From positions 7,325 to 71,324 of the forward strand of contig JAFRQX010000036.1 in the NCBI GenBank assembly GCA_017428385.1: a DNA stretch of 64,000 nucleotides, written 5' to 3'. The notes under the pieces were generated by a model. That model was not told the DNA's origin. It ran no database searches and saw only the letters and a program-made list of their open reading frames with translations. How positions within the stretch are numbered: the first letter of the stretch is position 1; every line of letters starts with the position of its first letter. This document shows, one piece after another, positions 740 to 57,761 of this stretch. Position numbers and translations under genes: made by a program. The DNA comes from Clostridia bacterium (lineage in GTDB: Bacteria; Bacillota; Clostridia; Christensenellales; Aristaeellaceae).

Positions 740-930
740 TTCATAATTCTGTGATCGCCGTAACCCATTCTTGCTGCGCCTGCGGCTTGCAATAATGGAC
801 GGCTGTAACATGGGTGTCATTAGTCGCGCTTAAGCGCGAATGACTCCTCAACAATTCAGAATTAAATGTTGACGGCGGGGCTGTCTCTTCTGTCACACCC
901 CTGCCGCGTCGTCCTTTGTATGGATTAACG

Positions 931-965
931 AAAACGCCCGGATCCGTGATGGATCCGGGCGTTGA
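931..965. terminator. Bidirectional intrinsic terminator
   Basis: aaaacgcccggatcc-gtgat-ggatccgggcgtt hairpin between convergent genes. Confidence 0.75.
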
Positions 966-978
966 TTTATGATCAGGA

Positions 979-1524
979 TCAGCCGTGTACCGGCAGGATG
1001 TCCAGGGTGCGCATGAGGTTCAGGCAGTTGTTGATCTGCTCTTCCGTCAGGGCCAGGCCGGGGGCTTCGTCGCCGGCGGTCAGGGTCAGCTCGATTTCAT
1101 GGCCAAGGCATATGGTGTAGAAGTCCAGGAAGTCAGGATCATCACCGGTTTCCCGGACCAGCAGCAGGTCCACACCGGAATCGGTCTTGAACGTATCAAA
1201 GGTGACGGTGTTTTCCTCGCTGAAGCCCATCTTCAGGCGTTCCAGGCTTTCTGCGTCCAGGTCGGACAGCTGGTTCACGCTGGCATAACTTTCATTGAAG
1301 GAAACATAGATGTTCAGGCGGGGCGCAGCGGGGTTTTCACTGACCACAGCGCATTCCATGGTCAGTTCACTCTGGGAAAGGATGGAGAGGTGATAGCCTT
1401 CCGGCAGTACACCGCTGAACTGCATACGGTTCTGGAAATCAATTGAGGTTTTATCCTCCGCAAAGGCGGAAACACAGGTGAGCAGCAGGACTGCGCACAG
1501 CAGAAGGGAAAGCATCTTTTTCAT
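979..1524 (-). CDS. Secreted hypothetical protein
   Basis: ATG at 1524 preceded by AGGAGG. Signal peptide MKKMLSLLLCAVLLLTCVSAFA. Confidence 0.8.
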   Translation of the reverse strand: MKKMLSLLLCAVLLLTCVSAFAEDKTSIDFQNRMQFSGVLPEGYHLSILSQSELTMECAVVSENPAAPRLNIYVSFNESYASVNQLSDLDAESLERLKMGFSEENTVTFDTFKTDSGVDLLLVRETGDDPDFLDFYTICLGHEIELTLTAGDEAPGLALTEEQINNCLNLMRTLDILPVHG

Positions 1525-1555
1525 ACGGGTAATACCTCCTTTTGACGGGATCCGG

Positions 1556-2245
1556 TCAGTACTGACGGACCACATAGTTCTTCATGATGAAGCCGGTGGC
1601 TTCCGTGTTGGGATCCGCAACCTGGTACCAGCTCTGGGTTTCAGCAATGACAGTCAGCTGGGAGCCGGAACGGTAGGTTGCCAGCACTTCAGCATCCTTG
1701 CTGGGGGCCCAGCGCATGTTGACCCAGCCGCTGGCGCGGGAGGGACGAACCTGGACCACGAAGGGTGTGATCAGACGGGCGGTGCGGAATTCCTTGTTCA
1801 GCTCCGCCATGGTATCGGTATATGCGGGAAGAACATTCGGTCTTGCCGTAGGCGCAATTGTAGGAATGGCGGTGGGAATGGGCGTGGGCGTTACGACAAC
1901 CAGGGGAGCCGGCTCAAACCACTGCAGGAAACGGCTCTGGACGTAAGCTTCACCGATCTTATCCCACTTGATGCAGGCCCAGCCGTTATCCAGGAAGCGG
2001 ATAACGCTCAGCTTGGAACCGTAGGGAGCGAGGCCGATGATGTTTTCGCCGACATAGGGCGTACTCCGGACGTTCAGTCCCTGGCCGTTGTCCGTATAGA
2101 CATACATGGTCATGACGGATTGATCCAGATAAGTATAGCTGTTGGGGGAGGACGCGGCCGTACCGATGCCGGATTCAGCAACGGCGGCAGCAAGGCCCAG
2201 CAGCAGAGCCAGCGCAAGCACAAGAGACAGCAGCTTTCTGTTCAT
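1556..2245 (-). CDS. Secreted protein with two bacterial SH3 (SH3b) domains and a Pro/Thr linker
   Basis: Signal peptide; GLNVRSTP...IIG and WVNMRWAPS...GFIM SH3b-like motifs; PTPIPTAIPT linker. Confidence 0.8.
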   Translation of the reverse strand: MNRKLLSLVLALALLLGLAAAVAESGIGTAASSPNSYTYLDQSVMTMYVYTDNGQGLNVRSTPYVGENIIGLAPYGSKLSVIRFLDNGWACIKWDKIGEAYVQSRFLQWFEPAPLVVVTPTPIPTAIPTIAPTARPNVLPAYTDTMAELNKEFRTARLITPFVVQVRPSRASGWVNMRWAPSKDAEVLATYRSGSQLTVIAETQSWYQVADPNTEATGFIMKNYVVRQY

Positions 2246-2483
2246 AAGAAATACCCTCCTTCATGCGGACCGGTTGTCAGTGTTATCCGACAGGATTTGT
2301 ATCCTTCCGGATATACCGATTATACCAAAAAAACGCGGGAGGGGGGAATTTTATTCCCGGAATAAAATTTCAATTCACAATTCATAATTATATGGATCTT
2401 TCTACAGGAGTTGTTCCGGATAGGTTGAAGGTTAATGAGTGAAAAGTGAAGAGTTGCGGCTACGGCCGCGGAGCAATCCTGCG

Positions 2484-2513
2484 TTGACAAAACAGGGGGA
2501 ATTGGAATATAGT
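2484..2513 (+). promoter_or_regulatory. Sigma-A-like promoter of esterase gene
   Basis: TTGACA-18-TATAGT upstream of the AGGAGG RBS. Confidence 0.5.
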
Positions 2514-2584
2514 AGGAGCAACAAGTTGTCCGTACATATTTGGACGACAAAGCGCAAGCTCAACAGCATAAGGAGGGAAATTCC

Positions 2585-3670
2585 ATGGAACAGAAATGGC
2601 CGTTGGACGTAACGGTTTCATTCGATCCGTATTTCGGTGAACCCAGCCGGGACGGCATCCAGGGCGCGGAGGTCCTGCCGGACGGAAAGGTGCACTTCAG
2701 GGTTATCGCCAAGGACGCAAAAGAGGTTGTGATCGACCGGTTCGGAACCATTTTCCCGCTTTCCAAAGTGGAAGACGGGGCGTGGGAAGGAACCTTTGAT
2801 ATGGGAACCGGCTTCCTGTATTTCTTCCTGAAGGTGGACGGCGCGGACGTGTTGTGCCCCTACATGCCCATCGGATACGGCTGCTGCCGCCCGATGAACT
2901 TTGTGGACGTGCCCGTGGCCGATATGGAAGGCTGGGACGACCTGGAAGGTGTGGAACACGGCGCGGTGACCCGTCGCTACTTCTACTCTACGGTGACCGG
3001 CAAGACGGAAATCTGCCTGGTGTGGACGCCGCCGGCCTATGATCCCGCAAAGGCCTATCCGGTGCTGTACCTGCAGCACGGCTACGGCGAGAACGAGACC
3101 GGCTGGATCTACCAGGGACATGCCGGCCGGATCGCCGACAGGCTGCTGGCGGAAGGCAAGATGGAAGAGATGATCATCGTCATGGGCAACGGCATGGCAA
3201 AGCCCAAAGACGAAAGCCAGCCCCGGGATTTTGCCCTGTTCCCGAACATCGTGGTAAAGGACCTGATCCCCTACATTGAGAAGAACTACAAGGTGCTGAC
3301 GGACAAATGGCACCGGGCTATGGCCGGCCTGAGCATGGGCAGCTTCCACACCAGCGTGACCACGCTGACGAATCCGGACCTGTTCGGCTACGCGGGCCTG
3401 TTCAGCGGCTTCCTCCGGGCTCCGTGGAATCCGGATGAGGAAATGCCCCACATGAAACTGCTGCATGAAGCGGATAAGTTCAACGAGAGCTTCAAGGTGT
3501 TCTACCGCGCCATGGGCACGGAAGATACCTACTGGGAAGCCTTTGACAAGGACGACGCCTACCTGGCGGACAAGCCCCTGAACATTACCCGGGAAACCTT
3601 CCCCGGCGGACATGACTGGACGGTGTGGCGCCGCTGCATCCGCTCCTTCCTGCCCAGACTGTTCAAATAA
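2585..3670 (+). CDS. CE1-like esterase (alpha/beta hydrolase, N-terminal CBM48-like Ig domain; feruloyl/acetyl esterase family)
   Basis: YPVLYLQHG, RAMAGLSMG nucleophile elbow, GGHDW catalytic His. RBS AGGAGG before ATG 2585. Confidence 0.85.
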   Translation: MEQKWPLDVTVSFDPYFGEPSRDGIQGAEVLPDGKVHFRVIAKDAKEVVIDRFGTIFPLSKVEDGAWEGTFDMGTGFLYFFLKVDGADVLCPYMPIGYGCCRPMNFVDVPVADMEGWDDLEGVEHGAVTRRYFYSTVTGKTEICLVWTPPAYDPAKAYPVLYLQHGYGENETGWIYQGHAGRIADRLLAEGKMEEMIIVMGNGMAKPKDESQPRDFALFPNIVVKDLIPYIEKNYKVLTDKWHRAMAGLSMGSFHTSVTTLTNPDLFGYAGLFSGFLRAPWNPDEEMPHMKLLHEADKFNESFKVFYRAMGTEDTYWEAFDKDDAYLADKPLNITRETFPGGHDWTVWRRCIRSFLPRLFK

Positions 3671-3718
3671 GGCAATGCAAAAAGGAGCCAGAGCGGCTCC
3701 CGTATAAGCTGATTTCTG

Positions 3719-3752
3719 AAAAATGTCATGACCTTCAGGTCATGACATTTTT
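3719..3752. terminator. Bidirectional intrinsic terminator
   Basis: aaaaatgtcatgacc-ttca-ggtcatgacattttt perfect stem with A/T tails. Confidence 0.85.
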
Positions 3753-5961: not shown

Positions 5962-6031
5962 AACAGTTTACCTCCTGTTCTTTGGTGAAAATATTATACG
6001 ATGAGGAAGAGGAAAAAGGCAATGAATAATC

Positions 6032-6330
6032 AAATTCACAATTCATAATTCATAATTCATAATGGCGGAGGAAATCCTTTCCGGATGGAAAGGGTTTCTT
6101 TTGAATGAAATGGATTGGACAGTGGAGGCTGAGGAGAGCAGGAACGTGACAAAGGGACAGACCAAACTGTCATCATTCCAAAGGAACGTGACAGTTGGTC
6201 TGTCCCTGTTGTCACATTCCGCCAGACTGGATGGTTTTTGCGCTTAACAGACAGTGGAGGCTGAGGTGAGCAGAAGACGATTGGCAGTTGAGTAAATCAT
6301 TATGAATTGTGAATTATGAATTATGAATTA
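6032..6330. repeat. Mosaic intergenic repeat (AATTCAT/ATGAATT heptamer arrays flanking a GGGACAG..CTGTCCC long hairpin)
   Basis: Inverted heptamer arrays at both ends. Hairpin 6146-6215 recurs at 16745-16812; 19 bp gagtaaatcattatgaatt recurs at 22178-22196. Confidence 0.85.
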
Positions 6331-6369
6331 AAAACCTCTCCGGGAAGGATCCCGAAGAGGTTGGTTTAT

Positions 6370-7365
6370 TTAGTTCTCAATCCGGACGTCGCCGGAGGTG
6401 GTATCAATACGCAGGCGGGCACTGCCGTCGCCGTAGACGTACTTGTCTTCGCTCTTGATTTCCATGGGCAGGCTGGTGTGGAGCCGGCTGGGCTTGGCGT
6501 CAAGGTCAAGGGTGAAACCGGGAGCGTTGGGCAGCTTCAGGGTGATGTTGCCGGAAGTGGCGTCCAGATCCAGGTCTTTGAAGGACTGCATGGTTACGGT
6601 CATGTCGCCGCTGGTGGAGTCGAACTCCGCATTGTCCGCGGAGGCCAGGTCCGCAAGGATCGTGCCGGAGGTGGAATCCAGATGGAGCTTTTTCACATCC
6701 CCGGAAAGGGTGATGTTAAGGCCGCCGGAAGTTGATTTCATATCAACGTTTTCAGCGGAGGCGGCGGTGAAGGTGATATTGCCGGAGGTGGAACCGAGGA
6801 CCGCGCTGCGGATATCTCCGTCCTGCCGGATTTCCATATCACCGGAGGTGGAGGAAGCGTCCAGCTTCTTAGTGCTGATTTCCGCTTTCACATTGCCGGA
6901 AGTAGTGTCGAAGCGGACTTCATCCGCATCCAGCTTCGGGACGTTCACATCGGCGGAGGTCACGTCGATATTCGATTTTTTCAGCGCGGTGCCTTCCGGC
7001 AGGGACACGGTCAGGACCTTGTTCAGGTTGAAGTGTATATTCAGGCCGGGTTTGCAGTAACGTACGCGCAGGGTGTTTCCGTCCATCCACCAGCGGAGTT
7101 TTTCATCTTCGGAAAGAGTCCGGTTGGCGGTTTCAGAGACGGTGACGCCGGAACCGGCATGATATTCCAGATTGACGGCGCCGGAGGTCCATTCAATATC
7201 CAGATTCTCCACAGCGGAGGAAATTTCGGTATCGCCGGCGGTATACTGGTCCGCGTTCGCGAAGGTGGACAGGCCGAGGCTGTCGCCGAAGACCAGGAAG
7301 CAGCTGCCGGCCAGCAGAACCAGGACAACGAACAGGGCACCGATCATCATTTTTGACTTATTCAT
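6370..7365 (-). CDS. DUF4097-type beta-strand repeat (adhesin-like) membrane-anchored protein
   Basis: N-terminal TM helix; many TTSG/STSG repeats. Confidence 0.85.
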   Translation of the reverse strand: MNKSKMMIGALFVVLVLLAGSCFLVFGDSLGLSTFANADQYTAGDTEISSAVENLDIEWTSGAVNLEYHAGSGVTVSETANRTLSEDEKLRWWMDGNTLRVRYCKPGLNIHFNLNKVLTVSLPEGTALKKSNIDVTSADVNVPKLDADEVRFDTTSGNVKAEISTKKLDASSTSGDMEIRQDGDIRSAVLGSTSGNITFTAASAENVDMKSTSGGLNITLSGDVKKLHLDSTSGTILADLASADNAEFDSTSGDMTVTMQSFKDLDLDATSGNITLKLPNAPGFTLDLDAKPSRLHTSLPMEIKSEDKYVYGDGSARLRIDTTSGDVRIEN

Positions 7366-10141: not shown

Positions 10142-11923
10142 TTACCGGTAATACTGGGCCTGAGCTTCAAACATGGCGGCATAGAGGCCGTCCGGGATAT
10201 TCACCAGATCATCATGGGTGCCGTACTCCGCCACCCGGCCTTCCGAGAACACGGCGATGTGATCGCAGAAGCGGCAGGAAGAGAGCCGGTGGGAGATATA
10301 GAAGGCGGTTTTGTCCTGGATCAGGGAGTTGAACTGCTTATAGATCTCATACTCGGCTACGGGATCCAGGGCGGCGGTGGGCTCGTCCAGGATGATGACC
10401 GGCGCGTCCTTGTACAGGGCGCGGGCCAGGGCCATCTTCTGCTGTTCGCCGCCGGAGGGTTCAATGCCGTCTTCCTCCATATACTTGAAGAGCTTGGCGT
10501 CCTCGCCGCTTTCCAGCTTATCCGCAAACTTTTCCAGACCGGCCTGTTTCAGCAGATCTGAAACACGGAGCCGGTCTTTTTCGTCCATGTTTTCCCGGTC
10601 CTTCAGGGTGACGTTTTCGCTGACGGTGAAACCGAAGAGCCTGAAGTCCTGGAAGACGGGGGAGAACTGCTGCATATACTGGTCATAATCGTATTCCCGG
10701 ATATCGGTTCCATCCAGGAGGATCTGTCCATCCGTGGGGTCATAGAGCCGGCACAGGAGCTTGATGAGGGTGGTTTTGCCGGCACCGTTCAGACCGACGA
10801 TGGACAGGCGTTCGCCCTTTTCTACGGTCAGGTTGACGCCGTCGAGCACCTTTTTCTCCGTGCCCGGATAGGCGAAGGAGACATTCCGGAACTCGATCCG
10901 GTGTTCTCCTGTCGGAACGGGCTTATCGCCCTTGGGCATAGCCTGGGGGTAGTTCATGAAGATGACGTACTCATAAGCGTAATTTGCTTTCTTCAGGAGC
11001 TCGGTGATATTGGACGCAATACCGCCCAGTGTGTTGAACAGGGATTCGGCCGCGGAAACCATCTGGGTGAAGATGCCCAGGGAGAAGACACCGCCGATTG
11101 TTTTCAGCGCGGTATAGCCGTAGGTAAAGGCGGTCTGGAAGACCGAAAGGGCTGCCTGAATCAGGGCATATTTCCGGGTGGTATCAGCCTGCCATTTCCA
11201 GCCCTGAAAGCTTTCTTCGCTGAAACCGTCCCATTTGTTCAGCAGCATGCCGGAAGCGTCGTACAGGCGGATATCCTTGCCGTAGCGGAAATCCACCATT
11301 TCCCAGCCGTAATAACCGAACATACGGTTTACTTTGGAAAGCCTTTCAAAGGCCTTCAGTTCCACCTTGCTGCTCAGCCGCATCAGGAACGCGTTCAGGC
11401 AGACGCACAGCAGGATCACTGCCAGCAGCAGCGGCGCATGCAGTGCAATGACCGTGACCAGGCCGACGATTTTGATGGCATTGCCGACGAAGGTAAAGAT
11501 CTGCTCGGAGATGCCGTAAACACCTTCGGAATACCAGCTCATGCCGGTATTGGTCTTTTCCAGCTGGTCCAGGAGCTTCTTGTCTTCAGTCAGCTGGTAA
11601 TCGAGGCCCATGGCGTGTTCGCTGATCAGCTGGGTGAAATAGTTATCCAGCCGCTCCTTGTACTTGCCCAGCTGGTTGACGGAAAGCTGGCGGATGACGG
11701 TCAGCAGGCATTCGCCGAGGATGAGGATAGCCGCATAGACGTACAGGCGGGTCAGGTCTTTTCCGCCGACCAGCTCGTCGATAATCAGGGGGGTCACGAA
11801 GATGGCGATGAAGGGCATCAGGATATCACAAAGGGTTTTCAGTGCCTCCAGGGGGAAGAACAGCGGGAACCGCTTCGCGGCCACCGGGAACATGAGGCGG
11901 ATGATTTCTTTCAGCTTTTTCAT
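10142..11923 (-). CDS. ABC exporter, fused permease/ATPase (second subunit)
   Basis: GLNGAGKTT Walker A, SGGEQQK signature, ILDEPT Walker B; N-terminal TMD. Confidence 0.95.
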   Translation of the reverse strand: MKKLKEIIRLMFPVAAKRFPLFFPLEALKTLCDILMPFIAIFVTPLIIDELVGGKDLTRLYVYAAILILGECLLTVIRQLSVNQLGKYKERLDNYFTQLISEHAMGLDYQLTEDKKLLDQLEKTNTGMSWYSEGVYGISEQIFTFVGNAIKIVGLVTVIALHAPLLLAVILLCVCLNAFLMRLSSKVELKAFERLSKVNRMFGYYGWEMVDFRYGKDIRLYDASGMLLNKWDGFSEESFQGWKWQADTTRKYALIQAALSVFQTAFTYGYTALKTIGGVFSLGIFTQMVSAAESLFNTLGGIASNITELLKKANYAYEYVIFMNYPQAMPKGDKPVPTGEHRIEFRNVSFAYPGTEKKVLDGVNLTVEKGERLSIVGLNGAGKTTLIKLLCRLYDPTDGQILLDGTDIREYDYDQYMQQFSPVFQDFRLFGFTVSENVTLKDRENMDEKDRLRVSDLLKQAGLEKFADKLESGEDAKLFKYMEEDGIEPSGGEQQKMALARALYKDAPVIILDEPTAALDPVAEYEIYKQFNSLIQDKTAFYISHRLSSCRFCDHIAVFSEGRVAEYGTHDDLVNIPDGLYAAMFEAQAQYYR

Positions 11924-13791
11924 TCGGCATCCTCCTCTCCTTCGGGATGCTCCCGGTAATACTGGGCCTGCACATCAAAGAGATGGGCATATTCGCCGCC
12001 TTTGGCCACCAGCTCGTCGTGGGTGCCGTATTCCGCCATCCGGCCGTCCATAAACATGGCGATGCGGTCGCAGAAGCGGGTGGAAGCCAGGCGGTGGGAA
12101 ATATAGACAGCGCTCTTCTTTCCGATCATCCGGTCAAAACGTTCATAAAGCTGCTTTTCCGCCAGGGCGTCCAGGGCGGCGGTGGGCTCATCCAGCACCA
12201 CCACCGGCGCGCCTTTATACAGCGCCCGGGCCAGGGCGAGCTTCTGCTTTTCGCCGCCGGACAGGTCAATGCCCTCTTCGGAGGCAATCTTCAGCAGCTC
12301 CGTATCCAGACCATTGGGCAGCTCGTCCAGCCTGTCGCCGAGACCGGCTTCCCGCAGGCAGGCTGCGGCCTTTTCCCGGTCCGTTTCCTGCATGGGCAGC
12401 ATGGATACGTTTTCCGCCAGGGGCAGGGCAAAGAGTTCAACATTCTGGAAGACCGGGGAGAACAGCTGGTAGTAATCCTCCCGGCGGTATTTCCGGATAT
12501 CCGTCCCGTTCAGGGTAATATATCCTTCCGTGGGATCATACAGCCGGAGCAGGAGCTTGATCATGGTGGTTTTGCCGGCACCGTTCAGGCCGACCACCGC
12601 CAGCTTTTCCCCGGGATGCAGGGTCAGGTTGAGGTGGGAAAGGGCATCCTTGTCCGCCTCCGGATACCGGTAGGAAACGTCGTGGAACTGCAGCTCCAGG
12701 GAATCCGTCTCCGGCAGGGGAAGCAGGTTTTCACCTTCTTCACCGTTCAGCTCCAGGAAAGAGCGGAGGTCATCCACTTCCATGGAGGCGCGGTTGAAAT
12801 CGCCAAACCGCTGCAGCAGGTAAATCAGCGCACCGGAGAAGGCGTTGGCCAGGGCCAGGTACAGGGTGAAGCTGCCGATGGACATGGGGTTGATTTCACG
12901 GATGATTGCAAAGTAGAGAACGGTGTAGGTGAGAAACCGGCAGATGACGTTCATCAACTGGCCGAAGAGCATGTTCCGGTTCCAGAGGTCCTGGTGATAA
13001 TCTATCCGCTCCTCCCGGGTCTCAAAAACAGCCCGCTGTTTTTTGAGCAGGAAGGGGATCATGGAGAACAGGCGGATGTCCTTGGCATATTCCGGCTGCT
13101 GGGTGACGCGGGCCATGTAGCTGCTTTTGCGCCAGACGGGGGCCAGACGGTCCCAGACTTCCTTTTTATCCTTTTTCAGGATGACCCGGTAGTACAGGAA
13201 GGAGAGAACGCCCATCACCGTGAGGGCCAGGATCAGCCGGTAATCCAGCACGAGGACGGCGATGAAGGTGACAATGGTGGTGAACAGGTTTTTGCCCAGG
13301 TCCTGCATGAGGTGCATCATGCCTTCGAAACCGTTGCTGTTGCCGTCGGTAGAGTTCTGGGCGCGCTGGTGAAGATCCAGGGCTTCCGGCTTTTCCAGCA
13401 TCGCGTAATTCATGCGCATGGCTTTCGCCGCCCGCTCATGGATGACGTGCATGCGGACGTCGATATACCGGGGCCAGACCAGGCTGCCGGCGATGGTTCT
13501 GCCGAAGGAGAAGGCAAGGGCTATGAGCGCCGCGATGATGATGATCACGATCAGCCGGTGCTGCTTTTCCGCCATGGGCAGGTCGATTGTAATTGCGTCC
13601 ACGATGAACTTGGACAGAAAACCGCCGAGGTAACTCTGGACAGAAGCGCAGAACAGATCCGTGAAGGCCAGCAGGAACACAATGGGGCAGTACTTCCGGA
13701 TCCGGTTCAGTACAAAACGGGTATTGGACCAGAGACCGAAGTCCCGGTGCAGGGGATTGTCTTTGCTTTCTTTATAGGTCATTGGTATCAC
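11920..13791 (-). CDS. ABC exporter, fused permease/ATPase (first subunit)
   Basis: GLNGAGKTT, LSGGEKQK, VLDEPT. 4-nt overlap with the next gene suggests a heterodimer. Confidence 0.95.
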   Translation of the reverse strand: MIPMTYKESKDNPLHRDFGLWSNTRFVLNRIRKYCPIVFLLAFTDLFCASVQSYLGGFLSKFIVDAITIDLPMAEKQHRLIVIIIIAALIALAFSFGRTIAGSLVWPRYIDVRMHVIHERAAKAMRMNYAMLEKPEALDLHQRAQNSTDGNSNGFEGMMHLMQDLGKNLFTTIVTFIAVLVLDYRLILALTVMGVLSFLYYRVILKKDKKEVWDRLAPVWRKSSYMARVTQQPEYAKDIRLFSMIPFLLKKQRAVFETREERIDYHQDLWNRNMLFGQLMNVICRFLTYTVLYFAIIREINPMSIGSFTLYLALANAFSGALIYLLQRFGDFNRASMEVDDLRSFLELNGEEGENLLPLPETDSLELQFHDVSYRYPEADKDALSHLNLTLHPGEKLAVVGLNGAGKTTMIKLLLRLYDPTEGYITLNGTDIRKYRREDYYQLFSPVFQNVELFALPLAENVSMLPMQETDREKAAACLREAGLGDRLDELPNGLDTELLKIASEEGIDLSGGEKQKLALARALYKGAPVVVLDEPTAALDALAEKQLYERFDRMIGKKSAVYISHRLASTRFCDRIAMFMDGRMAEYGTHDELVAKGGEYAHLFDVQAQYYREHPEGEEDAE

Positions 13792-15730: not shown

Positions 15731-15907
15731 GAGTATGTCCTCCTGAGATATGTTGTTTTCAATGTCTGGATTGAAACGATGAACAATCGGTCAGGTTATA
15801 TTGTATAAGGATGGGGAATAAAGGCGCAATACGCGGAAGGAAGAAGAAGAGGACAAAAAAAGCAAAAAAATGATACCGAGGGGAAGGCTCCCCCCTCGGT
15901 ATTAATG

Positions 15908-16100
15908 AATACTGAAAACTTAAAACTTAAGACTTAAAAATGGAGGATAAAACTGCTTCAGAAAGAAGCAGTTTTCAGTGTTTTAAGGCGGTGGGGAAGT
16001 TAAGAGCGTGGAAAAAGCGGCAAGAACAGTGACAGACAGTCAGTCCCCCTTGTCACATTCTTGCCGCAGTGTTGAGTGAAGAGTGTAGAGTGTAGAGTTG
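15908..16100. repeat. Mosaic intergenic repeat
   Basis: AAAACTT heptamers, aaaactgcttc..gaagcagtttt hairpin (also at 16601, 35293), GAGTG(A/T)A heptamers. Confidence 0.8.
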
Positions 16101-16205: not shown

Positions 16206-16514
16206 ATGGGCTGGATTTCGTGGTTGATTATCGTACTGGCTGTGGGGATCCTGGCTTGTTTCGGCGTGGGGATATTCCGGAAAAAGCAGGGTTCTGATGT
16301 GCGTGATAACGGAGAACTGACAACGGGTGTCTCCTTTGATCCGGAGAAACAGGAGCCGGTGATCCGCAGTTCGATATGCACCGGAGAAAAAGTGGCGGGG
16401 TTCAAGAGTAAGGAAGACGGCCACTTTACAGAGGTGATGGTGCTCCGGACGCCGAAGGATGAGGAAAGGTTTAAGGAGATGTATCATCTGGATTCAGTGA
16501 AAACTGAATACTGA
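16206..16514 (+). CDS. Small membrane-anchored hypothetical protein
   Basis: GGAGG RBS; N-terminal TM; conserved-looking PVIRSSICTGEKVAGF segment. Confidence 0.75.
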   Translation: MGWISWLIIVLAVGILACFGVGIFRKKQGSDVRDNGELTTGVSFDPEKQEPVIRSSICTGEKVAGFKSKEDGHFTEVMVLRTPKDEERFKEMYHLDSVKTEY

Positions 16515-16539
16515 AGATGAAAAATAATGAATACTTAAG

Positions 16540-16880
16540 ACTAGATCCTTCGACTGCGCTCCCTTCGTACCGCTTGCTCAGGATGACATCTCATAAGGAA
16601 AAAACTGCTTCAGAAAGAAGCAGTTTTTTAGTATTTAAATGATTTTTTTGCTTCGCAAAAAAGAGAGGAACGAGATTTCTCCACGCGGCAGCAAGCAGGC
16701 TTGCGCAGAAGGACAGAGTGGGCACTGTGGAGAAGTGAATGGATGTGACAAAGGGACAGACCAACTATCATCATTCCAGAAGAACGTGACAGTTGGTCTG
16801 TCCCTTTGTCACATTGCGGTGTAGTGATGAGTGTAGAGTGATGAGTGAAGAGTGAAGAGTGAAGAGTGAAAAGTGTCCTC
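16540..16880. repeat. Mosaic intergenic repeat
   Basis: Contains the GATCCTTCGAC..GCTCAGGATGAC module, aaaactgcttc hairpin, GGGACAG long hairpin and GAGTGAA heptamer run. Confidence 0.85.
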
Positions 16881-16893
16881 GTTTCTTCCGCTG

Positions 16894-20654: not shown

Positions 20655-21010
20655 TTAGGTAGGAGGTAGGAAGTAGGAGAGAGGAGGTATTGTCTTTTGC
20701 TTCGCAAAAGAATGATATGTTGCTTCGCAACATGATATTTCGACTTAATGTCGAAATGATAGGTTCGACTGTGTCGAACATGATATGTTTGGCTTCGCCA
20801 AACGTGATTAGTTATTGACCGCCTCTGTCAGGGTGACCTTGTGGAGGAAGTGGTGTTCCGTATAGGTTGAAGGTCTATATCTCCGGAGGAGATTCTTCGA
20901 CGCGCCCGCAGGCGGGCTTGCTCAGAATGACAATCATTACGTTAGGGGTAATTCTGTAAGTTCACATTGTTCGTAATTATGAATTATGAATTGTGAATTA
21001 TGAATTATTA
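20655..21010. repeat. Mosaic intergenic repeat with five-hairpin TGATA array
   Basis: TAGGAGG-type heptamers, hairpin array 20694-20804, GATTCTTCGAC..GCTCAGAATGAC module, ATGAATT array. Confidence 0.85.
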
Positions 21011-22039
21011 ATAGTTGTGTTTTGCTTCGTCATCGCCGTAGTGGAGGACGCTGTGGGATTTGATGTAGCTGACGACGGAGTCCACGGTGGTGAAGGCCAG
21101 GCCGACATGGGTGTCGGCTGCGCCGTAGTAGATGGCGATGCGGCCGGTGTCTCCATCCTGCAGAGTAGCGCAGGGGAAGACCACATTGGGCACGAAGCCG
21201 CTGACTTCATAGGGTTCTTCCGGCGTCAGCAGGTAGTTGGCGCAGCGGTAGAGCACCTTGCTGGGCTCGTTGATATCCAGGATGGCGCCGCCCATGGAAT
21301 AGACGAAGCCGTTGCAGGTGGAGGAAACGCCGTGGTAGAAAAGCAGCCAGCCTTCAGTGGTTTCAATCGGGGCGGCGCCGGCGCCGATCTTGACGCCCTG
21401 CCACCATTCTCCGCCACTGCCCATCACATGGCGATGCTTGCCCCAGAACACCATGTCCGGGCTCTCGCTGAGGAAGATATCGCCGAAGGGTGTATGGCCG
21501 CTGTCGGAAGGCCGGGAGAAGAGACGGAAGGTTCCGTTGATCTTCCGGGGGAAGAGTACCGCGTTACGGTTGAAGGGGATAAAGGGATTCTCCAGGCGGG
21601 TGAAGGTTTTGAAGTCCTTCGTCTTCGCCATGCCGATGGAGGCGCCGTGGAAATCTCCGCACCAGATGATGTAATAGGTGTCTTCCACCTTCACGAGGCG
21701 GGGATCATAGGCGTAATGGGGCATCATGGGGTTGCCGTCTTCATCGGTGAAGGGAACCTTTTCCCGCTCCACATCCCAGTGGATGCCGTCTTTGGAATGA
21801 CCGAGGTAGACGTAGGGAACGCCGTTGACCTGCTCGCCGCGGAGCACCGCGATGTAGCCGTCTTCCCACGGCACGACGGCGCTGTTGAAAATCCGGGCGA
21901 TTTCCGGGGTGGGATTGCGGCCCAGCACCGGGTTCTCAGAGTAACGCCATACGGGAGTCTCGGTTTTCAGATCCGCAGGACGATCCTGCCAGGGGATATT
22001 GGGGAGAGAGGAGACGTTGAGCATTTTTACTTCAGGCAT
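21008..22039 (-). CDS. Beta-1,4-mannooligosaccharide phosphorylase (GH130_2)
   Basis: PVWRYSENPV, IFNSAVV, YAYDPRL, NRNAVLFPRKING, GFVPNVVFPCA. Confidence 0.92.
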   Translation of the reverse strand: MPEVKMLNVSSLPNIPWQDRPADLKTETPVWRYSENPVLGRNPTPEIARIFNSAVVPWEDGYIAVLRGEQVNGVPYVYLGHSKDGIHWDVEREKVPFTDEDGNPMMPHYAYDPRLVKVEDTYYIIWCGDFHGASIGMAKTKDFKTFTRLENPFIPFNRNAVLFPRKINGTFRLFSRPSDSGHTPFGDIFLSESPDMVFWGKHRHVMGSGGEWWQGVKIGAGAAPIETTEGWLLFYHGVSSTCNGFVYSMGGAILDINEPSKVLYRCANYLLTPEEPYEVSGFVPNVVFPCATLQDGDTGRIAIYYGAADTHVGLAFTTVDSVVSYIKSHSVLHYGDDEAKHNY

Positions 22040-22065
22040 ATGTCTTACTCCTTATTGTCGTTTTT

Positions 22066-22218
22066 AATTCATAATTAATAATTCACAATTCATAATTATG
22101 AGTTGCTGAACTATGGATATGAATGATTCGTGTGACGATCTTCATGCTTTGGCTTTTCGCAGCTGTTATGGGTTGGTGAGTAAATCATTATGAATTATGA
22201 ATTGTGAATTATGAATTC
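22066..22218. repeat. Mosaic intergenic repeat bounded by inverted AATTCAT/ATGAATT arrays
   Basis: Same terminal arrays and 19-bp junction as the 6032-6330 element. Confidence 0.8.
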
Positions 22219-35245: not shown

Positions 35246-35249
35246 AAAT

Positions 35250-35328
35250 TAATACTGAAAACTTAAAACTTAAAACCTAAAAATGGTGGAACAAACTGCT
35301 TCCGGAAGGAAGCAGTTTTCAGTATTTA
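35250..35328. repeat. Short mosaic repeat (AAAACTT heptamers plus aaactgcttc..gaagcagtttt hairpin)
   Basis: Near-identical to 15908-15980. Confidence 0.8.
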
Positions 35329-35329
35329 A

Positions 35330-35860
35330 TCAGAAGAATTTAACGGTTTCTTCCAGGGGCTTCCGGGGCGGCGTGGCGGGAGCGGCGTCGCTCTTGCCGA
35401 CGGCGATGACGGAGATCAGCTCCTCGTTTTCCGGAATGCCGAGTTTGTCCCGGAGCAGTTCCACGTCCCGCAGGCCCATGATCAGGGTATCATAGCCCAG
35501 GTCCTTGGCCGCGAGGATCAGGTAGGCGTCATGCAGGCCCAGGTCATAAATGCCCCAGCCGTTGCCGATATCATCCACGGGCTGGCCGTCCGGGCCGAAA
35601 CCGACGATGCCTTTGACGAAGGTGGTGACGATGAGGGCCGCGTTGGCGGAGCTTTTTTTGTTAAAACCGGGAAGGGCGGCATCCCGCAGGGTTTCCAGAA
35701 CCTCCGGTGTTTCCAGCACGTAGCAGCGGGCAGTCTGCTGGTTCATCCAGGAGGGAGCCTGCTGGGCAGCTTTGCAGATGGCTTCCAGGTCTTTGTGGCA
35801 GGCGCCGGACTGATAGCTCCGGACGCTGCGGCGGGCGGCGATCAGGTCTTTGAATTCCAT
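35330..35860 (-). CDS. Nitroreductase family protein
   Basis: ARRSVRSY, QAPSWMNQQ, LGYDTLIMG, RKPLEE. Confidence 0.92.
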   Translation of the reverse strand: MEFKDLIAARRSVRSYQSGACHKDLEAICKAAQQAPSWMNQQTARCYVLETPEVLETLRDAALPGFNKKSSANAALIVTTFVKGIVGFGPDGQPVDDIGNGWGIYDLGLHDAYLILAAKDLGYDTLIMGLRDVELLRDKLGIPENEELISVIAVGKSDAAPATPPRKPLEETVKFF

Positions 35861-35936: not shown

Positions 35937-37244
35937 TTACCGGCAGGCTTTCCGCACTGCTTCCCGGACGGCTTCCAGGGGAAGGTTGAGCTCCTTCGCC
36001 AGGGCGGCGATCTCCTCATACTCAGCCTTGACTCGTTCGGCGCCCATGCCGGAGGCCCGCTTAAGCCGGACGGGACCGTATTCCGTGGAGACGGTTTCCT
36101 CATGGCGGTCCAGTACATACCGGCTCATGTCCTGGCGGCGGATGCCCAGGGTGGTGGTGTGCTTCATCATAACTTCCGCCAGTTTGTCCGCGTCCTGCGC
36201 CAGGCAGATAACCGACAGCAGGATGCCCGGGCGGCTCTTCTTCATGCCGATGGGCTGGGTGTAGACGTCCCGGGCGCCGGCGGCGAAAAGCTGCTCCATG
36301 GCAAAGGCGATATCCTCGCCGGTCATGTCATCCAGGTTGCACTCGAGGCGGGTGATGGTTTCCAGCTCTCCTTCGCTTTGGCCCAGGAATGCACGGATAC
36401 AGTTGGCCTGTTCAAAATCCTTTTTGCCCATGCCGTAGCCGATGGCTTCCACAGCCATGACGGGGCGGTCGCCGAAACGGGAGACAAAGTGCTTCAGCAG
36501 GGCGGCGCCTGTGGGCGTGCAGAGCTCGCCCCTGATTTCTCCGCCATAGGAGGGAATGCCCTCCAGGATCAGCGCGGTGGCCGGGGCGGGAACGGGCAGG
36601 ATGCCGTGGGCGCAGTGGACATGGCCGCTGCCGGTATGAACAGGAGAAGCAATAACCTGATCCGGGAAAAGCTGTTCCATCAGCAGGCATACGCCCACCA
36701 CGTCCGCCACCGCGTCCAGGGTACCCACCTCATGGAAATGGATCTCCGTGACCGGACGGCCGTGAACCCGGCTTTCCGCATTGGCAATCAGGGCATACAC
36801 AGCCTTGGCGTCGGCCTTGACCCGGTCGGACACATCCAGGCCGTTGATCAGCGCTTCAATATCCGCCACGGAGGCATGGTGATGATGCCCGTGGTCATGA
36901 TCGTGGTGATGATCATGTTCTTCTTCATGGTGATCATGGTCATGCTCGTGATGATGATCATGATCATGGTGGTGATGCTCATGGTCATGATCATGGTGCT
37001 CGTGATCATGATGGTGGTCATGGGCGTCTCCGGCTTCTTCCTCCACGCCGTCCACGGTAACCTTCACATGCGTTCCGGTGATACCGCACTTGACCGATCC
37101 TTCAGCGGCAACCGTAACGCCGGGCAGGCCAATGACGTTCATTTTGTCAATGAAAGCCTGGCGGTCGCCGGTCAGCTCCAGCAGGGCCGCGGTCAGCATA
37201 TCCCCGGCAGCGCCCATGGCGCATTCCAGATACAGTGTCTTCAT
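35937..37244 (-). CDS. larC: Nickel pincer cofactor biosynthesis protein LarC (nickel insertase)
   Basis: CAMGAAGDM, IHFHEVGTLD, CAHGILPVPAPAT, ELCTPTGAA, ECNLDDMTGE; long His-rich insert. Confidence 0.95.
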   Translation of the reverse strand: MKTLYLECAMGAAGDMLTAALLELTGDRQAFIDKMNVIGLPGVTVAAEGSVKCGITGTHVKVTVDGVEEEAGDAHDHHHDHEHHDHDHEHHHHDHDHHHEHDHDHHEEEHDHHHDHDHGHHHHASVADIEALINGLDVSDRVKADAKAVYALIANAESRVHGRPVTEIHFHEVGTLDAVADVVGVCLLMEQLFPDQVIASPVHTGSGHVHCAHGILPVPAPATALILEGIPSYGGEIRGELCTPTGAALLKHFVSRFGDRPVMAVEAIGYGMGKKDFEQANCIRAFLGQSEGELETITRLECNLDDMTGEDIAFAMEQLFAAGARDVYTQPIGMKKSRPGILLSVICLAQDADKLAEVMMKHTTTLGIRRQDMSRYVLDRHEETVSTEYGPVRLKRASGMGAERVKAEYEEIAALAKELNLPLEAVREAVRKACR

Positions 37245-53778: not shown

Positions 53779-53789
53779 AGACAGGTAGG

Positions 53790-54210
53790 AGGCGGTGTCA
53801 TCGCTTTGCGATGACAAATGCTGTGATCGCTGTATTCCGCAATCTCAATGGTCGCAACTCCACACTGTGGAGTTTGCTCCCTTTCGATTGACCTTAGACC
53901 CGATGAGATTTCCGCCACTGGCGGTCATCGGTTCTTCGCCCAAAGCCGCTGTGCGCCTTTGACAGCTGTAGCATGGGAGTTGTTACCCAAATCATAGATT
54001 TGGACAACTCCTCAACAATTAAGAATGAAGAATGCAGAATGATCCGCTGCGGCGGGAATGACAACGTGGGCGCTGCGAGTTATTCAATGCGCTTTGGGTG
54101 TCATCTTGAGCAAGTGAGCGTAGCGAACGCGTCGAAAGATCTCCCAGCCCGTTTGCAATCGGGAACGCAATCTGAACATCAGAGTGATGAGTGAAGAGAG
54201 AAGAGCGTGC
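53790..54210. repeat. Mosaic intergenic repeat
   Basis: Reverse copy of the GATCCTTCGAC..GCTCAGGATGAC module at 54100-54142, GTCAT..ATGAC hairpin near 53797, GAGTGAA heptamers. Confidence 0.65.
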
Positions 54211-54265
54211 CGCTGCACGGAAGGTAAATAAAAAAGTACACCTATCAAGATTGATGGAGAGAAAA

Positions 54266-54458
54266 ATGGATATCAGGCAACAGGACTATGATGAATATAA
54301 ATGGCCGTGCATGAGACCCAGAGTTTTATTACAAGGCAATATCCTTTTATAAGAAGAACGGTTTCCAGGTCATCGGTTTTGACAGATATGCCTACTCAAA
54401 CCATGACCCGGAGAAAAATAATATGCGGATTGAAATGGGCAAAATGCTGGACCGGTAA
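54266..54458 (+). pseudogene. Degraded GNAT (streptothricin-acetyltransferase-like) remnant
   Basis: Fragments in three frames: MDIRQQDYDEYK / VHETQS / YYKAISFYKKNGFQVIGFDRYAYSN..MRIEMGK-stop; central domain missing. Confidence 0.7.
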
Positions 54459-54501
54459 ACCGGATGAGACCGGCATTGAAAAATATACAGGAGGAAGAAA
54501 T

Positions 54502-55299: not shown

Positions 55300-55336
55300 T
55301 ATGGGGAGGGGGGGAACACCCCCGACAGGCCCGCAT

Positions 55337-55374
55337 AAAAAAAGAATCCGAACCTTTTATGGGTTCGGATTTTC
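55337..55374. terminator. Bidirectional terminator
   Basis: aaagaatccgaacc/ggttcggattttc stem. Confidence 0.75.
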
Positions 55375-55520
55375 TGTTTGCCTCATTTGACAGCCCACCA
55401 GGCTGATATTTGGCCCATTGAAAACTGCAACAATGAATGCCTGCGGGCACTATGAGTTGAGCATCGATCATCAATGTGTCCGGGAATCCGGGCATATATC
55501 AGGATGAAGCTGCTGTGCGT

Positions 55521-56075
55521 TTAGTGGGGATTGGTGAAGAAGTTGATGATGCTGTCTATACCCTGAAGGGCATTTGCGTCGTCTGCGGCAGGTGTTACAT
55601 TGGTGTTGTGACTGGAAACCAGGTCGTGAATGGATTGACAGTTCATATGGTGTAAAAGGATACGGGCTGTGCTGTATGCCTTTTCCATACGGCCGTCCCC
55701 GCCGCCAACCAGGATCACAGCGCCTTTTTTTTCTTTAGGGATGGGCTCTTCTTTCCGAAAGAACGCGGCGCAGTAATAGGTCTGGAGCCTGCTTCCCAGA
55801 TCCAGCAGTTTGCCGGTCAGCTCTGAAAAATACACCGGGGAAGCGATCAGGATGTTGTCGCATTCCTGGATGTAGGCATAGATCTCCTGCATCTCATCGG
55901 CGATGGCGCAGCCGGGGTGCTCCCAGCAGTACCGGCAGTCAACGCAGGGAGAAACATCGCAGTGATAGGCGTTTACGATTTTATATTCTCCAGGCAGTTT
56001 CTTCGTCAGCTCTTTGATCAGGCTGACGGTGTCGCCGTTTGCCCTGGGAGAACCGTTCAGTATCAGTGTTTTCAT
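55521..56075 (-). CDS. Flavodoxin-fold NADPH-dependent FMN reductase / iron-sulfur flavoprotein
   Basis: NGSPRANGDT, CVDCRYC..C, IASPVYF. Confidence 0.9.
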   Translation of the reverse strand: MKTLILNGSPRANGDTVSLIKELTKKLPGEYKIVNAYHCDVSPCVDCRYCWEHPGCAIADEMQEIYAYIQECDNILIASPVYFSELTGKLLDLGSRLQTYYCAAFFRKEEPIPKEKKGAVILVGGGDGRMEKAYSTARILLHHMNCQSIHDLVSSHNTNVTPAADDANALQGIDSIINFFTNPH

Positions 56076-56086
56076 TGTGCTCCTGC

Positions 56087-57616
56087 TTATTTATGCCATA
56101 CTTCGTTCATGAATTTGATCCGTCTTTCAAGCCACGTTGCAAGCTGTTCGGCAGACTCCTCTTCGTTTTTGCAGGCATAGGCCTGCCGGTTCAGTTCATA
56201 ATCGATGGGAGACTTGTCTCTCATATTGCTCCAGCGTTTATAGTTTTTCGTAAATGCAGATTTGTACTTCTGGCTGTCAGAACGGACTGACTCAATGGTT
56301 TCGGTGAACACGCCCCGGTCATAAAGATCTGTCCACTTCCGGGCGATGATATCTGTGAACCATTCCTGCCTCATCAGTACGTTGAGCCACGGGTTGATTG
56401 CCTTGTACACATGATCCACATCATCCACCACATTGGCCGCGTGGTACCCGCGACCATACTCGACGACATAACGGTTTCCCATGGCTGAATCAAAGTCCCA
56501 GGGGGCTTCAAACCGCAGCTTTTTGTCACCGTCGGGACTGAGATCAGCGCTCATGAAAAAGCTGGAATAGTAAATATCCGGGTCACAGGTGATTTCACTG
56601 AGAATATACATATCCGCCAGGGACTGAACGTCGACGACAGTTTCGACAGCCTCCCGGGGCGTCTTGGAAGACGGTGCGGTATTCCTGAAATCGGCGGTCA
56701 TCTCCAGTGCTTTATCATCATAGGAGGCTGAATACATGATGTCGTAGGTGTTGGAAATAAAGTTCCGGATCGTGATGCGCTGGGTTTCGGAGCGGATATT
56801 GCTCTTGATTGTGAAACCCACAAGATCCTGCTTGCGCTGGGGATCCGTGCAAAGTGGTGTGAAAGGGTTTGCATTGGGATAACCGTTAAACGGAATCAGC
56901 GGCGCAAAATTGTTGTAATTGATGGTGAAGGAGTGCAGGCGGTCTTCCAGCGTGTAATATGCGTCATATTCCACAAAATATCCCACGTTCGGGCCGTTTT
57001 CTCCTTCTTTGGGTTCAGGTACGTTTACGCGGCCCTTGGCTACTTCCTGCTGTTCCGCGAGGAGGTATACGCCCCAGTACTTACCGTTGATCTCCACCTC
57101 AACCAGTTCGCAGTCGGAACAGTAAAGGTCTTCTCTCAGGATTTTGTGTGCCAGTTCAAAGGCTGTTTTGTTCCGCAGCATGGAAAGGTCCTTGTATTCC
57201 GCCAACAGAAGCCAGTTTTTGAACGGCTGTCCTTCGTTAAGATCGCCAAAGGACTGCTTTTCCGTGAATTTGATCCGCAGCGGCTTTTTCTCATAGCTGG
57301 TGGTCCAGTTGCCCCTGACTTTGACCTGCGCCGGTTGCTTGCTGACGGTGGTTTTACCGTCGGTTCCGGTGTAGGAGACGGTGCATTCGACATAATAAGG
57401 TTCAGGGGGGATTTTATAATCGGGCGTCCAAGAGGCGATAGCCGCGGAGACGTTGCCCTTCACGGGTTCGGTCACGAAGCGGGTGCCTTCTCCCTTGGTA
57501 ACGGTTTTGATGGAAATCAGGGGCATCAACCGTTTGCCGGCTGCCTGTGCACCGGCACAGCAAAGAAGAGCCATTGCGATAAGCAGTGCGGCAAGGAATG
57601 CTTTTGTATGTTTCAT
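56087..57616 (-). CDS. Secreted CotH-family atypical kinase
   Basis: KVRGNWT, LRIKF, WLLLAEYKD..LRN, YWGVYLLAEQ, PWDFDSAMG; signal peptide. Confidence 0.88.
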   Translation of the reverse strand: MKHTKAFLAALLIAMALLCCAGAQAAGKRLMPLISIKTVTKGEGTRFVTEPVKGNVSAAIASWTPDYKIPPEPYYVECTVSYTGTDGKTTVSKQPAQVKVRGNWTTSYEKKPLRIKFTEKQSFGDLNEGQPFKNWLLLAEYKDLSMLRNKTAFELAHKILREDLYCSDCELVEVEINGKYWGVYLLAEQQEVAKGRVNVPEPKEGENGPNVGYFVEYDAYYTLEDRLHSFTINYNNFAPLIPFNGYPNANPFTPLCTDPQRKQDLVGFTIKSNIRSETQRITIRNFISNTYDIMYSASYDDKALEMTADFRNTAPSSKTPREAVETVVDVQSLADMYILSEITCDPDIYYSSFFMSADLSPDGDKKLRFEAPWDFDSAMGNRYVVEYGRGYHAANVVDDVDHVYKAINPWLNVLMRQEWFTDIIARKWTDLYDRGVFTETIESVRSDSQKYKSAFTKNYKRWSNMRDKSPIDYELNRQAYACKNEEESAEQLATWLERRIKFMNEVWHK

Positions 57617-57761
57617 ACTGCAGGTCCCTCCCTGTAGATAGGTATGGAAAAAGGAACTGAAAAGGTGTGGGGCTTTGGAAGCTATGGGTTCATTCTACAG
57701 AAGGGGGAGGGGAAAGTCAAATAAAGGGAATGAATACTGAAAACTGATGGGGACGGGGGAG

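Follow-up and report, generated by a model that had tools for sequence, protein, structure and literature searches.

Heptanucleotide arrays and small hairpin repeats with GC-skew polarity in the intergenic DNA of an uncultured rumen Clostridia bacterium

Arrays of tandem heptanucleotides have been reported in bacteria since 1990, and we know of no function or mechanism for them. The STRR heptanucleotide repeats of cyanobacteria were reportedly described by Mazel et al. in 1990. Here we analysed the intergenic repeats of a 64,000-nucleotide stretch of DNA (the window; C33:7325-71324) from an uncultured rumen Clostridia bacterium, whose genome comprises 3.32 Mb in 46 contigs (all labelled C) and whose nearest relative is RUG111 (G007), with 83-89% nucleotide identity. 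We judge it about an even chance that the window samples a genome-wide community, restricted to one clade of one genus, of tiny non-autonomous repeats acting as single-stranded DNA, with likeness to both BIME/REPIN and STRR repeats. Among described systems, TAACTGA repeats occur in Beggiatoaceae, cyanobacteria and Bacteroidetes (PMC4679880), and arrays of GGGAATC or GGGGAYT occur in Xanthomonas and Nostoc, with 70-75 convergent pairs in Xanthomonas, where Rehm et al. reported no preference for the leading or lagging strand (PMC4692102). Dispersed palindromes are known from the REP/REPIN-RAYT systems and the BIMEs of Escherichia coli (Nunvar 2010, PMC2817692; Bertels & Rainey 2011, PMC3116915). 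A variant of these is TIRYT/TIRtron (Di Nocera 2013, PMC3733652), or subclass 2.1 of the Y1 transposases (Quentin 2018, PMC6006769), whose flanking repeats carry GGGGWSAS (PMC6006769 section 20; PMC3733652). Y1 transposases work on the lagging-strand template (PMC6006769), and the same paper summarises the miniature elements derived from IS200/IS605 (PATEs) and the replication-coupled transposition of single-stranded DNA.

The repeats of the window recur throughout the genome. BLAST comparison of ten intergenic regions of the window with the whole genome gave 1,359 matches, and an all-against-all comparison of intergenic sequences (bounded by crude longest open reading frame, or ORF, calls) found about 35 kb of repeated intergenic DNA in 397 of the 1,601 intergenic regions. 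Several copy counts were obtained with custom regular expressions that were controlled on reversed sequence, and the module patterns returned 70-82 real matches versus 0-3 in these controls. A preliminary description of the window had singled out five intergenic modules and expected them to recur outside it; all five were present where it had placed them, and their genome-wide recurrence was far above chance. Its reading of the modules as one modular repeat family held in part. The repeats are dispersed, non-coding, structure-forming and polymorphic among relatives, but they make up at least seven separate families whose distributions among related species differ.

The most abundant component, which the preliminary description had not recognised, was a class of short tandem arrays of a degenerate heptamer, typically 3-7 units long, and the 19-mer GAGTAAATCATTATGAATT (at 6290 and 22178), the aatactgaaaact sequence (at 15908, 35250 and 57733) and the aattcataattc pieces turned out to be parts of such arrays. 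Genome-wide there were 447 runs of period 7, versus 13 of period 5 and 16 of period 8; the period-7 runs had 25% G+C, measured 21-49 nt and were mostly intergenic. With strand and phase chosen per run, 425 of the 447 fitted the single unit A-[ACG]-T-[GT]-[AC]-A-N, and since this optimisation builds in some fit, the 95% observed should be set against our own estimate of at most about 18% for AT-rich heptamers when every rotation and both strands are allowed. In the roughly 1,600 units, position 1 was A in 99%, position 3 was T in 99% and position 6 was A in 96%, and position 2 was never T. The unit occurred in several flavours (AATTCAT, ACTTAAA, AATGAAG, AGTGAAG, AATGCAT and others) that were coherent within each array. 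The 5' start of the arrays had no motif, and the last unit at the 3' end was conserved as AAT[GT][AG]T in every flavour. The arrays occurred singly or as convergent pairs with the arms facing the cargo: among 382 merged arrays, neighbours within 800 nt were convergent in 47 cases and divergent in 4, and 59 of 308 arrays had an exact inverted 11-mer on their downstream side, whereas no array had one upstream. [quoted passage not shown] Several contigs of the assembly start or stop within a heptamer array (C12:4-24, C39:1-30, C8:136602-136622 and C35:141-169), so the arrays probably cause assembly breaks.

These arrays share with the STRR-type repeats the intergenic position, the few 7-nt units per array, the hundreds of sets and the 7-nt length steps between relatives, and share with the Xanthomonas heptamers the convergent pairs able to form a stem-loop. 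They differ from the known heptamers in belonging to a new lineage (rumen Clostridia), in their AT-rich degenerate unit with many flavours, and in having a defined 3' terminal unit and associated hairpin families; unlike the Xanthomonas arrays of Rehm et al., they have a strong replichore polarity. They could also be plain simple-sequence repeats grown by slippage from chance seeds, accompanied by decaying MITEs, with no shared mechanism or function. This view draws on the gap between lacI and GH130, which holds 0, 2, 3 or 5 AATTCAT units, a convergent pair or the F7 element depending on the species, with proto-arrays overlapping the 3' end of lacI, as well as on the local coherence of the flavours. 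However, one shared unit in 95% of the arrays is far from the chance estimate given above, and chance seeds would explain neither the common 3' terminal unit, nor the convergent geometry (59:0), nor the replication polarity; the covariation in the hairpin families, moreover, argues for selection on structure. We regard this explanation as already disfavoured, and give it hardly any credence.

Hairpin families accompany the arrays. REPIN-W, the GTGACA..GGGACAGACCAA hairpin, consists of two inverted REPs (REP-W) with a spacer of about 16 nt, and 14 such doublets were present genome-wide. Two of them, the GTGACAAAGGGACAGACCAA..TTGGTCTGTCCC hairpins of the window, lie at 6143-6219 and 16743-16815, with 28-nt arms that are 96% complementary, and a lone diverged copy lies at 16022-16060. 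REP-W had about 28 copies, the REPs with a GGGGACGGTTCT core about 45 and REP-A about 22, and the REP heads were GTGACA, GAGACA, AAGACAA and GGACAC. The preliminary description had called all the modules non-autonomous and REP-like. That label suits the GTGACA..GGGACAGACC hairpin, which has the layout of a REPIN doublet and a core like that of RAYT-flanking REPs, but the arrays, the GA-module, the mini-hairpin arrays and F6 are separate families with no demonstrated enzyme. Shared with REP/REPIN-RAYT systems are the short intergenic palindromes in tens of copies, the inverted doublets and the mosaics with other motifs. Unlike the REPs of Di Nocera 2013 (PMC3733652), those found here lack a GTAG or CGTC tag. 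The arrays, the GA-module and families F6-F8 have no counterpart in BIMEs, and where the BIMEs of E. coli have REPs of alternating orientation set apart by a few conserved linkers, unrelated families in variable order are joined here, so that the resemblance is organisational only.

The GA-module is the GATCCTTCGAC..CTCAGGATGAC element read on the other strand, TGTCAT-xyz-GA-S...S'-GA-z'y'x'-ATC, about 40 nt long. It gave 82 anchored matches (control 0), of which 70 had all three xyz pairs, with six triplet types, and its S/S' pair was GC in 37 and CG in 32. In the predicted fold a 5-bp stem is followed by a tandem G·A and a single base pair, then by an internal loop that is conserved and a second stem (P2) that varies and carries GNA loops. 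On inspection we rejected a hammerhead, since CUGA is not conserved (UCGA in half of the copies) and the expected G8 position is C, and a classical k-turn, since the covarying S/S' pair leaves no 3-nt bulge. F6 is a 115-nt multi-stem element with 46 copies, whose long-range helix covaries (AACC/GGTT, AATC/GATT, AAGC/GCTT, ATCC/GGAT, AACT/AGTT and ATGC/GCAT); such covariation within families argues for selection on structure. F7 is an element embedded in arrays, F8 consists of arrays of mini-hairpins with ATAT(TT)CAY linkers (71 loci, control 2), and F9 comprises terminator-like hairpins joined to ACTTAAA arrays. The GA-module lay within 100 nt of arrays in 39% and REP-W in 30% of cases, versus 14% for random intergenic positions.

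The orientation of the repeats follows the GC skew. Single arrays favoured the G-rich strand at 239:48 (p about 1e-31), in every flavour and at several window sizes and thresholds. With respect to transcription there was no bias, 101 arrays being sense and 85 antisense. Between co-directional genes the ratio was 69:12 with the genes on the G-rich strand and 46:7 otherwise; since the two agree in direction, the bias is not transcriptional, and a transcription-driven orientation was rejected because the same bias was seen beside leading- and lagging-strand genes. Purine loading was also dismissed as the cause, because even AATTCAT, a unit richer in pyrimidines than in purines, favours the G-rich strand. 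In the closed relative genome G001, the stretch from about 2.7 Mb across 0 to about 0.85 Mb has positive GC skew and the remainder negative, and the arrays of G001 follow the skew (34:7 in 20 samples; about 37:9 in a contiguous 440 kb). An apparent excess of forward arrays at 1.17-1.26 Mb of G001 proved to be arms of convergent pairs. No forward-strand array match was listed from 0.58 to 1.17 Mb, and arrays were absent from 20-kb samples taken at 0.68 and at 0.85 Mb. The polarity of the GA-module was opposite to that of the arrays, at 47:16 in this genome and 89:7 in G001, where it flips at the same two skew-switch places; relative to transcription it was 13:17. The F8 mini-hairpin arrays had a polarity of 61:10. 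Thus arrays, hairpin module and mini-hairpin arrays followed the GC skew in 85-93% of cases, independently of the direction of transcription, and the GA-hairpin of about 40 nt, with 93% replication polarity and strong covariation, is among the smallest repeats of its kind.

The G-rich strand is presumably the leading strand, because GC and AT skew share the same sign, 12 of about 14 essential-gene markers are co-oriented with it (our own tally from a mixed list), 61% of ORFs lie on it, and in Firmicutes the G-rich strand is as a general rule the leading one. Since orientation is fixed relative to replication and not to transcription, the repeats most likely act or spread as DNA. We favour single-stranded-DNA elements as in the Y1/HUH systems (PMC6006769), because of the replication polarity, the independence of transcription, the covariation and the nesting of the modules. 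The polar orientation, which the preliminary description did not include, is the strongest pointer to such a mechanism. The replication fork would be where the modules act, in single-stranded form. The hairpin modules would be non-autonomous, with strand-specific insertion and excision of the kind that Y1 transposases perform on IS200/IS605 elements and REPINs; slippage would lengthen and shorten the arrays by 7 nt at a time, and the arrays would form arms or landing pads. As far as their observed features go, the arrays behave as slippage-prone repeats under a polar, sequence-specific constraint. The hairpin modules are like PATEs, as these are summarised in PMC6006769, in being defined by hairpins and not by terminal inverted repeats, in having no evident target duplication and in their replication-tied orientation. 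They are unlike PATEs, in the same summary, in measuring 35-120 nt and in having no TnpA of the IS200 type, and no TnpB partner turned up, although TnpB was not searched for.

The polarity bears directly on an explanation at the RNA level. Here the convergent arrays would be 30-bp AU-rich stems in transcripts, like the 23S intervening sequences cut by RNase III, the hairpins would be terminators, stabilisers or protein-binding RNA, and the PF05635 protein would be the partner of the cassettes. One ground for it is the distribution of PF05635, a family of four-helix-bundle proteins. The convergent pair C18:42983-43436 encloses such a gene, which in relatives is a frequent cargo, and among 18 PF05635 loci in this genome and its relatives, none of them in the window, 10 were bracketed by convergent arrays and 4 had one arm. 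Bracketing was also found in two other families of the order, with other units (GCCAGCC, GTTAGAG and GAATTCG). Within the genus, 7 of the 11 array-positive genomes and none of the 14 array-negative ones had PF05635 (Fisher p = 7e-4, not corrected for phylogeny), and we found no paper linking PF05635 with heptanucleotide arrays. As in the 23S rRNA intervening sequences, an inverted-repeat stem thus brackets a small PF05635 (S23p/four-helix-bundle, Avd-like) gene, the stems here being heptamer arrays; unlike those sequences, the cassettes sit between protein genes and outside rRNA genes, most pairs carry unrelated non-coding cargo and most arrays are unpaired. The A- and T-run flanks of F9 resemble bidirectional terminators, and its pairing is kept in G007 with a different stem; the tandem G·A and variable P2 of the GA-module are found in many RNA motifs, and arrays lie directly beside ribosome-binding sites (RBSs) and stop codons. 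On the other hand, neither the arrays nor the GA-module are biased relative to transcription, and the polarity of the arrays follows the GC skew whatever the direction of the flanking genes. About 250 of about 310 arrays have no inverted partner, and genome G011 has 185 array matches but no PF05635. Moreover, no Rfam family matched any module, at the gathering score or at E<5, for which reason known ribozyme, HEARO and riboswitch readings were dropped. We consider action at the RNA level unlikely. The shared unit, the defined 3' end, the convergent geometry and the 85% replichore co-orientation turn the choice between DNA and RNA into a testable question.

Comparison with related species pointed to fast turnover of the single-stranded-DNA elements proposed here. 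Two GH130 genes are separated by 10-60 nt in array-negative relatives, whereas the distance is 370 nt in this genome, 655 nt in that of G007, 244 nt in that of G001 and 601 nt in that of G004, and the modules filling it differ among these array-positive species. Neither G001 nor G004 has the block at 15.8-16.9 kb of the window, and in G007 it holds other content. F6 was nested in REPIN-W (C11:11153), in the loop of a GA-module (G007) and in F7 (window 53833), and REP-A was nested in F6 (C35:6784); at four F6 insertion sites there was no conserved flanking target tetra- or pentanucleotide. The empty orthologous sites, the differing fillings and the nested insertions show rapid turnover. Of 25 species of the genus, 11 carried AATTCAY arrays, which were absent from all 16 other families of the order that were sampled. 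Across the genus the number of GA-modules rises and falls with that of the arrays, and F6 is genus-wide and amplified in array-positive species. Such repeats could serve as strain markers in rumen metagenomes.

This turnover also weighs on the proposal that the repeats serve the host as polarity or replication signals read on one strand, namely as priming or single-strand initiation sites, guides for translocases or recombinases, or platforms for single-stranded-DNA-binding protein at one heptamer per monomer. The skewed motifs KOPS and Chi are known and comparable in polarity to the arrays, whose strand polarity, like that of the hairpin modules, is independent of transcription and holds in two species. 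The three invariant positions in every 7-nt unit would fit such a role, as would the one mosaic that is nearly identical between species (see below). The mini-hairpins carry GCGAAGC/GNA loops, and such loops form very stable DNA hairpins. There is also the precedent of Bacillus subtilis CspB, which binds heptamer repeats with one protein per heptamer, as cited in PMC4679880. Against host signals, the arrays are lacking in 14 of the genus's 25 species and in every other family sampled, so that they are dispensable; further points are the fast turnover at orthologous sites, the zone of more than 0.4 Mb in G001 without arrays, and nested insertions that look selfish. We hold such a host function to be rather improbable.

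The spread of single-stranded-DNA hairpins would call for an enzyme, and the preliminary description had named a RAYT outside the window as one candidate. Four Y1 genes of family PF01797 do exist in the genome (C35:10313-11284, C35:15528-16298, C30:1852-2610 and C36:11512-12261), each flanked by its own REP family (REP-A, REP-B, REP-C and REP-D), but none by the REP type of the window. They encode proteins of 249-282 aa with HUH and Tyr motifs that are mutually 39-43% identical and score above the Pfam Y1_Tnp cut-off; the best NCBIfam match was to the 'REP-associated tyrosine transposase' (NF047646), at 63-76 bits and thus under the 80-bit cut-off. All four have a helix-turn-helix (HTH)-like C-terminal tail, with weak matches to HTH_23/HTH_38 at residues ~217-252, and the core of their flanking repeats is GGGGACAG or GGGGACTG for type A, whereas for types B-D it is GGGGACGG. 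By their sequences the four genes appear to match subclass 2.1/TIRYT, given the long protein, the C-terminal HTH-like domain and the GGGGWSAS-like flanking repeats, the repeat cores containing GGGGAC(A/G)G. Divergent single-copy Y1/HUH genes with their own flanking repeat types are likewise a feature of REP/REPIN-RAYT systems. Next to subclass 2.1 genes Quentin et al. (PMC6006769) saw no REP-like sequences; all four genes here are flanked by dispersed REP families, a link that this reference survey did not find. Among the Y1-flanking types REP-B is closest to REP-W: the two share the GTGACA stem, and a comparison by eye puts the likeness of their cores at about 70%. The RAYT link is therefore reasonable for REPIN-W, where the similarity of the repeats supports it for the REPIN module alone, and it is unproven for all other modules. 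Y1 enzymes would move REPIN-W, and the GA, F8, F6 and F7 modules and the arrays may be moved by Y1 or any other enzyme.

Several observations weigh against single-stranded-DNA elements of this kind. Unlike in REP/REPIN-RAYT systems, the REP-W of the window has no adjacent Y1 gene: none of the four RAYT/TIRYT genes in the genome is flanked by REP-W, nor by GA, F6, F7 or F8 modules. The four long Y1 genes are the only ones in the genome, which has no classical IS200 TnpA; matches to the IS200-type TnpA (E about 1e-41) were found only in other species. Array-negative species also have RAYT-like genes, and two array-positive genomes, both incomplete, yielded none, so these genes cannot explain the arrays, and the species distribution rules out RAYT as their driver. 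REP-A and REP-D, which directly flank RAYT genes, show no proximity to arrays, with 0-3% lying within 100 nt of one. Tandem G·A and GNA/GNRA-like loops would fit RNA no less than DNA. In G001 dnaA (C1:1306829-1307311) lies within uniformly negative GC skew and far from both switches, so that an origin at dnaA was rejected and the term leading strand is indirect. Lastly, the mosaic at 6061-6360 of the window is 99-100% identical to G007 between flanks of 84-90%, which suggests constraint or exchange rather than selfish turnover; the REPIN-W at 6143..6219 is 100% identical in G001 and G007, with flanks of 82-90%. The patches 6061-6360 and 6661-7260 are 95-100% identical to G007 inside a block that is otherwise 67-91% identical, and on this sequence comparison they suggest recent recombination between species or strong constraint.

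A bolder form of the single-stranded-DNA reading joins these elements. The arrays would be a strand-specific single-stranded-DNA feature of the fork, read unit by unit by a protein, for which the PF05635 four-helix bundle is a candidate, and would provide arms or landing pads for nano-elements of 35-120 nt transposing as hairpins. We offer this as a long shot. If it were true, the polarity would supply a mechanism open to testing for the STRR-type heptamers of cyanobacteria, Xanthomonas, Beggiatoaceae and others, which have long gone unexplained.

Within the window the families are distributed as follows. An F7 element (CTGYGATCGCC..hairpin..GCTGTARCATGGG..hairpin..CTCCTCAAC) lies on the forward strand at 742..866 inside short heptamer units (AATTCAT AATTCTG ... 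AATTCAG AATTAAA), and G001, G004 and L053 have this element too, within arrays that lie at orthologous or other sites. At 756-765 and 53823-53832 of the window the F7 element carries TG(C/T)GATCGC, similar to the cyanobacterial HIP1 octamer GCGATCGC, which is probably a coincidence. Two short forward arrays (AATTCAC AATTCAT; AGTGAAA AGTGAAG) follow a gene at 2364..2455. A convergent pair surrounds the first REPIN-W: its left arm at 6025..6065 (forward; AATTCAC AATTCAT x3, ending in AATGG) has 32 nt that are 94% complementary to 6298-6329, and its right arm at 6296..6335 (reverse) adjoins the terminator of gene 6370-7365. The doublet between them, 6143..6219, has two inverted GTGACA-nn-GGGACAGACCAAC-TGTCA REPs, with the direct repeat GTGGAGGCTGAGGWGAGCAG on both sides (6122-6141 and 6254-6273).

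At 15904..15975 (forward) an ACTGAAA/ACTTAAA array is followed by AATGGAGGA and then by the F9 hairpin AAACTGCTTC..GAAGCAGTTT with its A-run and T-run; the orthologous stem in G007 has another sequence with the pairing kept. The aaactgcttc..gaagcagttt hairpin noted earlier was found at 15950, 16602 and 35293. The single diverged REP-W-like palindrome at 16022-16060 is followed by an AGTGAAG/AGTGTAG array (16068-16100), and this forward segment, 16022..16100, is missing at the orthologous site of G007. The mosaic intergenic region 16496..16881 contains, in order, forward heptamer units overlapping the stop of a 102-aa ORF (16496-16541), a GA-module on the reverse strand (16544-16588), an F9 hairpin (16596-16627), a mini-hairpin (16640-16657), the second REPIN-W (16743-16815) and a forward AGTGAAG array of 7-8 units (16823-16881). 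The GAT(C/T)CTTCGAC..CTTGCTCAG(G/A)ATGAC sequence of the preliminary description was found at this GA-module (16544-16588, reverse) and also at 20891-20932 (reverse) and 54099-54141 (forward).

The mosaic between the two GH130 genes, 20657..21012 on the reverse strand, is made up of four parts: at 20657-20680 an ACTTCCT/ACCTCCT array; at 20692-20810 five mini-hairpins separated by ATATCAT linkers, which form an F8 array; at 20835-20932 a GA-module whose 3' tail is conserved; and at 20971-21012 an array of AATTCAT units that overlaps a stop codon. The ACTTCCT/ACCTCCT array, one of about ten arrays of this type in the genome, is anti-Shine-Dalgarno-like on the transcribed strand and could pair with the RBS of the second GH130 gene, which it precedes by about 20 nt. 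Heptamer units cover the last codons and stop codons of the 102-aa ORF (16496-16516) and of a GH130 gene (20971-21012), so arrays can supply C-terminal residues and stop codons, and array overlap with stop codons and RBSs can mislead annotation. Between lacI and GH130, at 22065..22218, a convergent pair (22065-22099 forward, 22184-22218 reverse) encloses 84 nt of unique sequence. Directly 3' of a bidirectional terminator, at 35247..35330 (forward), an ACTGAAA/ACTTAAA array is joined to an F9-type hairpin and a short inverted arm (TTTTCAGTATTTAAT).

The nested mosaic at 53797..54205 (forward) begins with a GTCATCGCTTTGCGATGAC hairpin (53797-53815) and an F7 element (53820-54019) interrupted by F6 (53833-53945), and continues with an AATTAAG/AATGAAG/AATGCAG array (54014-54042), a forward GA-module (54099-54141) and an AGTGATG/AGTGAAG array (54182-54205). 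A forward mini-array of two units, AATGAAT ACTGAAA, is present at 57729..57742. From about 58 kb on, the G+C content drops to 43-47% and the GC skew reverses, and at 58086-60043 of the window a tRNA-like fragment (Rfam tRNA 38.6 bits, no ARAGORN call) adjoins a large serine recombinase of 566 aa; this region looks like an integrated element. Elsewhere in the window, two neighbouring ABC-exporter-like genes at 10142-13791 are tandem paralogues with stretches that are 72-76% identical (10202-10474/12007-12279 and 10691-10893/12487-12689), and a repeat with a 12-nt period at 36882-37037 lies within a long ORF pair, Met/Val/Ile-rich on the forward strand and His/Asp-rich on the reverse strand.

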